Positions 28,296 to 28,460 of a stretch of DNA of 64,000 nucleotides are shown here, piece by piece. Made by a program: the position numbers and the translations under genes. The stretch lies in IMG/VR virus record IMGVR_UViG_3300028283_000231; one strand, given 5' to 3'. The DNA is from a virus (taxonomy: Duplodnaviria > Caudoviricetes). Below the pieces are notes generated by a model, which saw only the letters and a program-made list of their open reading frames with translations, made no database searches and was not told the origin of the DNA. Positions within the stretch are counted from its first letter, which is position 1, and every line of letters begins with the position of its first letter.

Positions 28296-28460
28296 GGGGT
28301 AACAACAGAGTGGCGGTCTGTACAGGCAACGATAACCTGATTGAATGACGAATTGCGGATGCACCTATAGCGACCTTATGTTGAGGTGGTGAGAAAACAA
28401 TGAGCAAGGGAAGCGAGTTACTAGTCTTCAGCGGTGTGGGTTCGAATCCCACTTACTCCA
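28296..28460 (+). ncRNA. 165-nt tRNA-like RNA with Ala identity (G3-U70, A73) and a large central insert
   Basis: GGGGTAA/TTACTCC acceptor; D-arm ACAGA/TCTGT; T-arm GTGGG-TTCGAAT-CCCAC. Confidence 0.7.

Follow-up and report, generated by a model that had tools for sequence, protein, structure and literature searches.

It is an open question why odd tRNA-like genes occur in large phages, and the RNA cofactors and substrates of bacterial RtcB operons are largely unknown. Both questions meet at the locus described here, a gene in a phage tRNA array for an RNA that has the ends of an alanine tRNA and exceeds a normal tRNA by about 92-95 nt. What is this RNA, and what could it do for the phage? 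The window (the whole stretch of viral DNA that was analysed, 64,000 nt) is, as judged by sequence, part of a close relative of the 735-kb huge phage LR756501, hereafter the sister phage. The original prediction, made from the window alone, had offered a minimal tmRNA, an alanyl-tRNA synthetase (AlaRS) decoy or a tRNA spliced by RtcB. The family to which the RNA belongs joins huge-phage tRNA arrays to RtcR/Ro60/RtcB loci and thereby links the two questions, and its copies in the cultured phage RSP15 and in Deinococcus isolates open it to direct testing.

Architecture of the window RNA

The gene (Table 1) measures 165 nt to the discriminator, does not encode CCA and sits after a tRNA-Pro-like gene, a position that is the same in three related phage sequences (L001, L028 and L032). 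The acceptor with G3·U70 and A73, the D arm and the canonical T arm were all confirmed, with pairing at 7/7 acceptor positions; positions 8-9 read CA, not UA. The original prediction was also right that the RNA contains a long insert, and mistaken in letting this replace the anticodon region: the anticodon position still has a hairpin, and the surplus is an expanded variable region. Likewise, the frame NDNLIE* that had been likened to a tmRNA tag is present (28328-28348), where its codons are simply the loop and 3' strand of the anticodon-position hairpin.

As 200 simulations under a dinucleotide model gave 0.0 tRNA shells of this kind per simulated window, against one in the real window, and the RNA has 27 homologues, the shell is not a product of chance. 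The minimum free energy of the RNA by itself is unremarkable (z +0.8). The search against tmRNA and tRNA models suggested with the original prediction gave no tmRNA call: no Rfam 15 family matches the RNA, the sole Rfam signal being a 16-bit partial tRNA match at its 3' end, and ARAGORN, run on the window, makes no call for 28296-28460.

Table 1. Features of the RNA gene and its surroundings (positions in the window)
Feature	Position	Strand	Remarks
Whole RNA gene	28296..28460	+	98.8% identical to the LR756501 copy (flanks about 90%); 196 bits with covariance model R1
Acceptor 5' strand, G1, G2, G3 (G3 = 28298)	28296..28302	+	Pairs 1-3 invariant, 4-7 covary (alanine-type members); pairs with 28453-28459
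D hairpin, GG in loop	28305..28321	+	Compensatory changes in L044, L143, L094
Anticodon-position hairpin, 4 bp, 9-nt loop with AACG (28328-28331), no U33; non-decoder	28323..28339	+	
Expanded variable-region domain, closed by helix V1 (28341-28349 / 28424-28431)	28340..28435	+	
Conserved core, 5' half	28353..28371	+	Near-invariant
Variable hairpin within core	28373..28387	+	Length varies by at most 26 nt among members
Conserved core, 3' half; pseudoknot between 28416-28419 and the anticodon-position loop	28404..28419	+	
T arm, G49-C65, U50-A64, G51-C63	28436..28452	+	Canonical
Acceptor 3' strand (U70 = 28457) and discriminator A73 (28460)	28453..28460	+	
Phage tRNA array holding the RNA gene, broken up by nuclease-like ORFs	28013..33300	+	Context
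Phage RtcB RNA ligase gene	54272..55312	+	Pfam RtcB, E 1.7e-25

Several other unusual elements lie in or near the array. Oversized tRNA shells of 99-112 nt occur at 29559-29666, 30962-31070, 31315-31420 and 32444-32542, and in L001 at 10487-10591 and 10594-10705; two of these have G3·U70 and A73, and the core is absent from all. Odd tRNAs occur at 28201-28287, 32657-32739, 32817-32896 and 36588-36673: the variable arm is long in Pro(UGG) and Thr(CGU), the D region is enlarged in Gly(UCC), and the body of an Arg(UCU)-like gene is rearranged. A structured RNA at 28601-28698, with an internal T loop and a long terminal stem, is a YrlA-like candidate without an Rfam match. Another conserved non-coding element (32975-33120, also in L001 and L028) contains RNase-P-like words; it has no Rfam match (E up to 5) and no similarity to a phage RNase P-like RNA found in L433 (2708-2919, minus strand; 49.8 bits, below gathering). 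Two short A-rich elements with terminal stems, 31956-32110 and 32744-32811, recur in L001 and L028 and give weak scores (37 and 26 bits) with the Dictyostelium class I RNA model. The segment 27770-27975, which precedes the tRNA array and is shared with L028 and L032, combines a terminator with a short ORF in which Gly-Thr codons recur, and looks like an attenuator-type leader.

Distribution and conserved fold of the family

The original prediction had made its case depend in part on conservation of the RNA, and 27 members plus one decayed copy (L453 3636-3827) were found by synteny, core-motif scans and a covariance model. Eight are closely related phage copies (the window, L001, L033, L028, L032, L044, L143 and L094) and four are divergent phage copies (L096, which is partial, L433, L439 and L455, the cultured Ralstonia phage RSP15, at NC_030948.1 95443-95662, minus strand). 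Bacterial copies occur in 12/111 Deinococcus genomes, in 2/151 Fibrobacterota genomes (L200 and L442) and in one further Deinococcota genome (G1100, L452). Of the members, L033 alone was identified through a pattern requiring alanine-type ends, although model R1 also favours such ends. The core pattern had no match in 803 sampled genomes of Myxococcota, Planctomycetota and Bacteroidota, a BLAST search of plasmids gave no family match, exact end patterns found nothing among viral contigs, and a relaxed core scan returned chance matches only. Matches to a broad shell pattern proved to be tandem tRNAs, permuted tmRNAs and unrelated shells, and were rejected as members. Long-insert phage tRNA shells unrelated to the core of the family were seen in L003 (1959-2103, minus strand), L004 (8543-8701) and L006 (10254-10408, minus strand), one with a nested tRNA-like piece and one of 159 nt with G3·U70.

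By these comparisons the family is real and patchy, spread across phages and two bacterial phyla, and we consider it very likely that it is a structured RNA family that is neither tmRNA nor intron. Being absent from Rfam 15 and invisible to ARAGORN, it has gone unannotated even in the RefSeq phage RSP15; a search of the openly accessible literature found no description of it. Just upstream of the RSP15 copy lies another unannotated structured RNA (L455 5580-5905), a segment of which matches positions 1098-1143 of the 23S rRNA model (E 0.00095).

Under the proposed structure, 96.1% of cells are paired in seven phage sequences and 14/44 pairs show a compensatory change, a degree of pairing reached by none of 500 shuffles; slid controls were 32-47% paired. 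RNAalifold, unaided, recovers the acceptor, D, anticodon-position, V1 and T helices. The helices of the shell covary, V1 has compensatory changes in 4/8 pairs, and the core of about 65 nt between the V1 strands is near-invariant around a variable internal hairpin. Across the family the variable-region domain measures 95-170 nt. The Fibrobacterota copies have a canonical D arm, and one Deinococcus copy (L239 1372-1650) carries an insertion of about 70 nt in its D loop.

The loop at the anticodon position, 8-20 nt long and without U33 throughout the family, has its complement at the 3' end of the core, with the three central pairs kept in 20/20; in RSP15 an A-U pair between loop and core has become C-G, both sides being altered. 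Comparison among members shows the loop to be tied to the core by a pseudoknot, so that it is not free to read codons. Within the core, we propose that the first four bases of 28353-28371 pair with 28404-28407, and 28361-28365 with 28408-28414. A second pseudoknot is suggested by core pair 67:118, which changes from C-G to A-U in L032 and L096. The other core pairs never vary and are therefore only inferred; with most core pairs invariant and RNAalifold giving alternative pairings, the core fold is not proven. What sequence comparison does establish is a four-arm tRNA shell, a compact conserved domain in its variable region and the pairing between loop and core.

Repair loci, known tRNA mimics and a possible role

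The Fibrobacterota copies, L200 and L442, each come as the first gene behind a sigma-54-type promoter that faces rtcR; next in line are rsr, yrlA and rtcB in L200 and rtcB itself in L442. The copy in L452 lies upstream of tRNAs, a YrlA-like RNA, Ro60 and RtcB. Three repair loci (two RtcR-RtcB operons and one Ro60-RtcB cluster) thus hold a family member, and the link to RtcB raised by the original prediction is real as gene context. Ro60 is found within about 4 kb of the RNA in L200 and L452, and not in the sister phage or with the Deinococcus copies. RtcB is encoded in the window (Table 1) and in the sister phage too. Behind the window rtcB comes a DUF2828/DUF7788 gene that is split by a LAGLIDADG ORF (54272-57846 in all); the match of its protein to Ro60 is marginal (E 0.005) and was discounted.

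Among known RNAs, YrlA (RF02553; PMC4201824) is similar in being a non-decoding tRNA mimic with a canonical T arm, found in phages and at rsr/rtcB loci. However, the YrlA fold is a circular permutation, its acceptor closed by a loop and its terminal stem binding Ro60, whereas the window-type RNA keeps the standard 5'-3' order and free ends, lacks the conserved GNCGAAN0-1G motif and does not match RF02553; separate YrlA genes moreover stand beside the family member in L200 and L452. The predicted b7a-tRNA (Burroughs and Aravind 2016), as it is described in bioRxiv 10.1101/312249, is a tRNA-like RNA encoded beside rtcB and occasionally rsr, tied to Band-7 genes and closely resembling an authentic tRNA. 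In the present family rtcB is adjacent at three loci, and the 95-170-nt domain sets the family apart; set side by side by description only, the two could overlap. No Band-7 gene was identified in the subset of annotated neighbour ORFs scanned at the three rtcB loci. The T4 species 1 and 2 RNAs (rnaC and rnaD) are likewise stable non-decoding RNAs of a phage tRNA cluster, and rnaC ends in a T arm, but neither is similar to the core, scores staying at T-arm level. RNAs a, b and d of the Deinococcus radiodurans rsr locus also bear T arms and lie near Ro60, in a genus with family copies, yet the core has no match at that locus or elsewhere in the D. radiodurans genome. The family seems to behave like the tRNA mimics of RNA-repair operons, although by membership it is neither YrlA nor tmRNA.

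The occurrence of one RNA family both in phage arrays and in bacterial RNA-repair gene clusters is the ground for a repair reading. From this gene context we tentatively favour, as plausible if somewhat short of probable, a putative non-decoding tRNA mimic acting as a decoy or scaffold in tRNA damage and repair. Going by established tRNA biology, the RNA would be co-transcribed with the tRNA array, trimmed as a tRNA and given CCA; the window copy would then be alanylated by the host AlaRS and held by EF-Tu. It would offer a tRNA shape without a cleavable anticodon loop, and its core domain would bind a protein partner from the damage/repair circuit. As a decoy, the RNA could draw off host nucleases or sensors that target tRNA; alternatively it could be a scaffold for an RtcB/Ro60-type repair complex; in a phage this would be counter-defence, guarding the phage tRNA supply. 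For YrlA, competitive inhibition of an anticodon nuclease has been proposed (PMC7790460), and decoy- or scaffold-type roles have been suggested (PMC7790460; bioRxiv 10.1101/312249; PMC7824862).

Several observations count against a role in repair. The three repair contexts amount to about two independent lineages. None of the 12 Deinococcus copies is near repair genes; each is a solitary gene, most of them preceding a terminator-like hairpin, and a further copy has decayed. The family is sparse among Fibrobacterota, and its core pattern is missing from the 803 genomes sampled from three other phyla. The window rtcB, for which we infer a functional link to the RNA, lies 26 kb from the RNA gene, and no Ro60 vWA match was found in the sister phage.

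Alanine identity and alternative readings

G1-C72, G2-C71, G3·U70 and A73 are invariant in 22 members, and G3·U70 is absent from the other five. Bacterial alanine determinants are G2-C71, G3·U70, G4-C69 and A73, and alanylation needs no anticodon (PMC9976931). The window RNA has this full set, in keeping with the alanine identity first proposed for it. Alanine-type members occur on both sides of the deepest split in the family; a tree built on 84 core columns has weak resolution and says no more than that the non-alanine members are scattered. As for EF-Tu, G51-C63 is present in 22/22 distinct members scored (and, by inspection, in RSP15 and L452), with predicted T-stem ddG values, computed from PMC3239215 Table 2, of -0.4 to -1.1 kcal/mol and of -0.4 kcal/mol for the window copy; among 96 ordinary tRNAs of these arrays the pair occurs in 34%, and the predicted ddG averages +0.1. 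All scored T stems are therefore predicted to bind EF-Tu tightly, although their conservation may reflect inheritance or stability instead of selection for EF-Tu. The window copy is probably alanylated by the host AlaRS and bound by EF-Tu. No AlaRS gene was found in the sister phage, which does have a CCA/poly(A)-polymerase-family gene; CCA is encoded in the Deinococcus copies. Since five members lack G3·U70, alanylation is likely for the window copy and yet does not define the family, and for the same reason an AlaRS decoy does not hold as its core function.

An alternative to the damage/repair mimic is that the pseudoknotted domain is itself active, either as a ribozyme making RtcB-type ends and feeding the RtcR circuit or as an RNA replacement for SmpB in tag-less ribosome rescue; we think this rather unlikely. 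In the rescue version, which we judge unlikely taken singly, a charged, EF-Tu-bound RNA would enter stalled or damaged ribosomes without codon reading, the RNA domain would stand in for SmpB, and the RNA would accept the nascent chain. SmpB binds tmRNA at the place taken in a tRNA by the D stem and anticodon arm, and it is at this very site that the D stem and anticodon-position arm of the present RNA sit. There is also no release signal, five members lack G3·U70, and the sister phage already has a tmRNA and SmpB. Alanine identity in 22/27 members, on both sides of the deepest split, and the T stems predicted to be tight for EF-Tu speak for rescue, as do the existence of CDS-less tmRNAs (PMC11915505) and the repair of rRNA, too, by RtcB (bioRxiv 10.1101/312249).

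To a similar degree we doubt that the core is a ribozyme or a small-molecule aptamer on a tRNA scaffold. Self-nicking, for example, would leave 2',3'-cyclic-phosphate and 5'-OH ends for RtcB to seal and RtcR to sense, and cyclic-phosphate tRNA halves do activate RtcR (PMC7790460). The RNA stands at the head of RtcR-driven operons, and a near-invariant core that appears multiply pseudoknotted, with a variable hairpin, would be typical of catalytic or ligand-binding RNAs. Against this, the core topology is unlike that of HDV, twister, pistol or hammerhead, no Rfam ribozyme or riboswitch matches at E up to 10, and RtcR is missing from the neighbourhood of most copies. Brief similarities to group I P4-P5, TPP, SAH, glmS and cobalamin motifs gained no Rfam support and were set aside.

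A non-ribosomal aminoacyl donor, or a sponge for AlaRS or EF-Tu, is quite improbable. Dedicated aminoacyl donors usually avoid EF-Tu, and every scored member here has a tight T stem; there is no adjacent transferase gene, and acceptor identity shifts while the core persists. This is weighed against the feasibility of alanylation without an anticodon (PMC9976931) and the several further G3·U70 shells in the same array.

That the RNA is an intron-containing tRNA, spliced by an endonuclease and RtcB, is highly improbable and was rejected, in spite of RtcB in the window and at three bacterial loci and of the 'enigmatic introns' that Lak phage tRNAs are reported to contain (PMC6784885): the anticodon-position hairpin is complete on the 5' side of the insert, and because both strands of its stem precede the insert no excision can restore a 7-nt decoding loop with U33 from a loop of 8-20 nt, RF00028 gives no group I match (E up to 10; only a short P4-P5 consensus resemblance), and for alanine the array is already supplied with UGC and GGC tRNAs and a CGC candidate.

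A minimal tmRNA with the tag NDNLIE is scarcely credible, and the lack of conservation of its frame refutes it. The likeness to tmRNA (RF00023, including the tRNA-like-domain-only RNA of phage DS6A) lies in the G3·U70/A73 acceptor, a similar T stem and a long helix at the variable position; a UAG-containing word precedes the inner hairpin, and the ends of bacterial copies reach 12-21 bits on RF00023, but no score exceeds 21 bits (gathering 47), the D stem and anticodon-position arm covary, alanine identity is not universal, and neither resume codon nor tag is conserved. Only the window and its twin have NDNLIE*; in L028 the frame gives NVT*, in L235 and L237 it runs without a stop to the T arm, and other homologues yield long unrelated peptides, loop-to-core offsets occur in all three phases, and a resume-style frame after the invariant UAG-containing word is stop-less in 8/22. 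The sister phage, finally, carries a full tmRNA as a separate gene, with a tag of its own. This tmRNA candidate (L019 1350-1844, minus strand; LR756501 about 718240-718731), missed by ARAGORN, has an unusually long tag (about 33 aa) ending in LVLA, and its T loop is interrupted by a group I intron, a gene form that has been described (PMC11915505).
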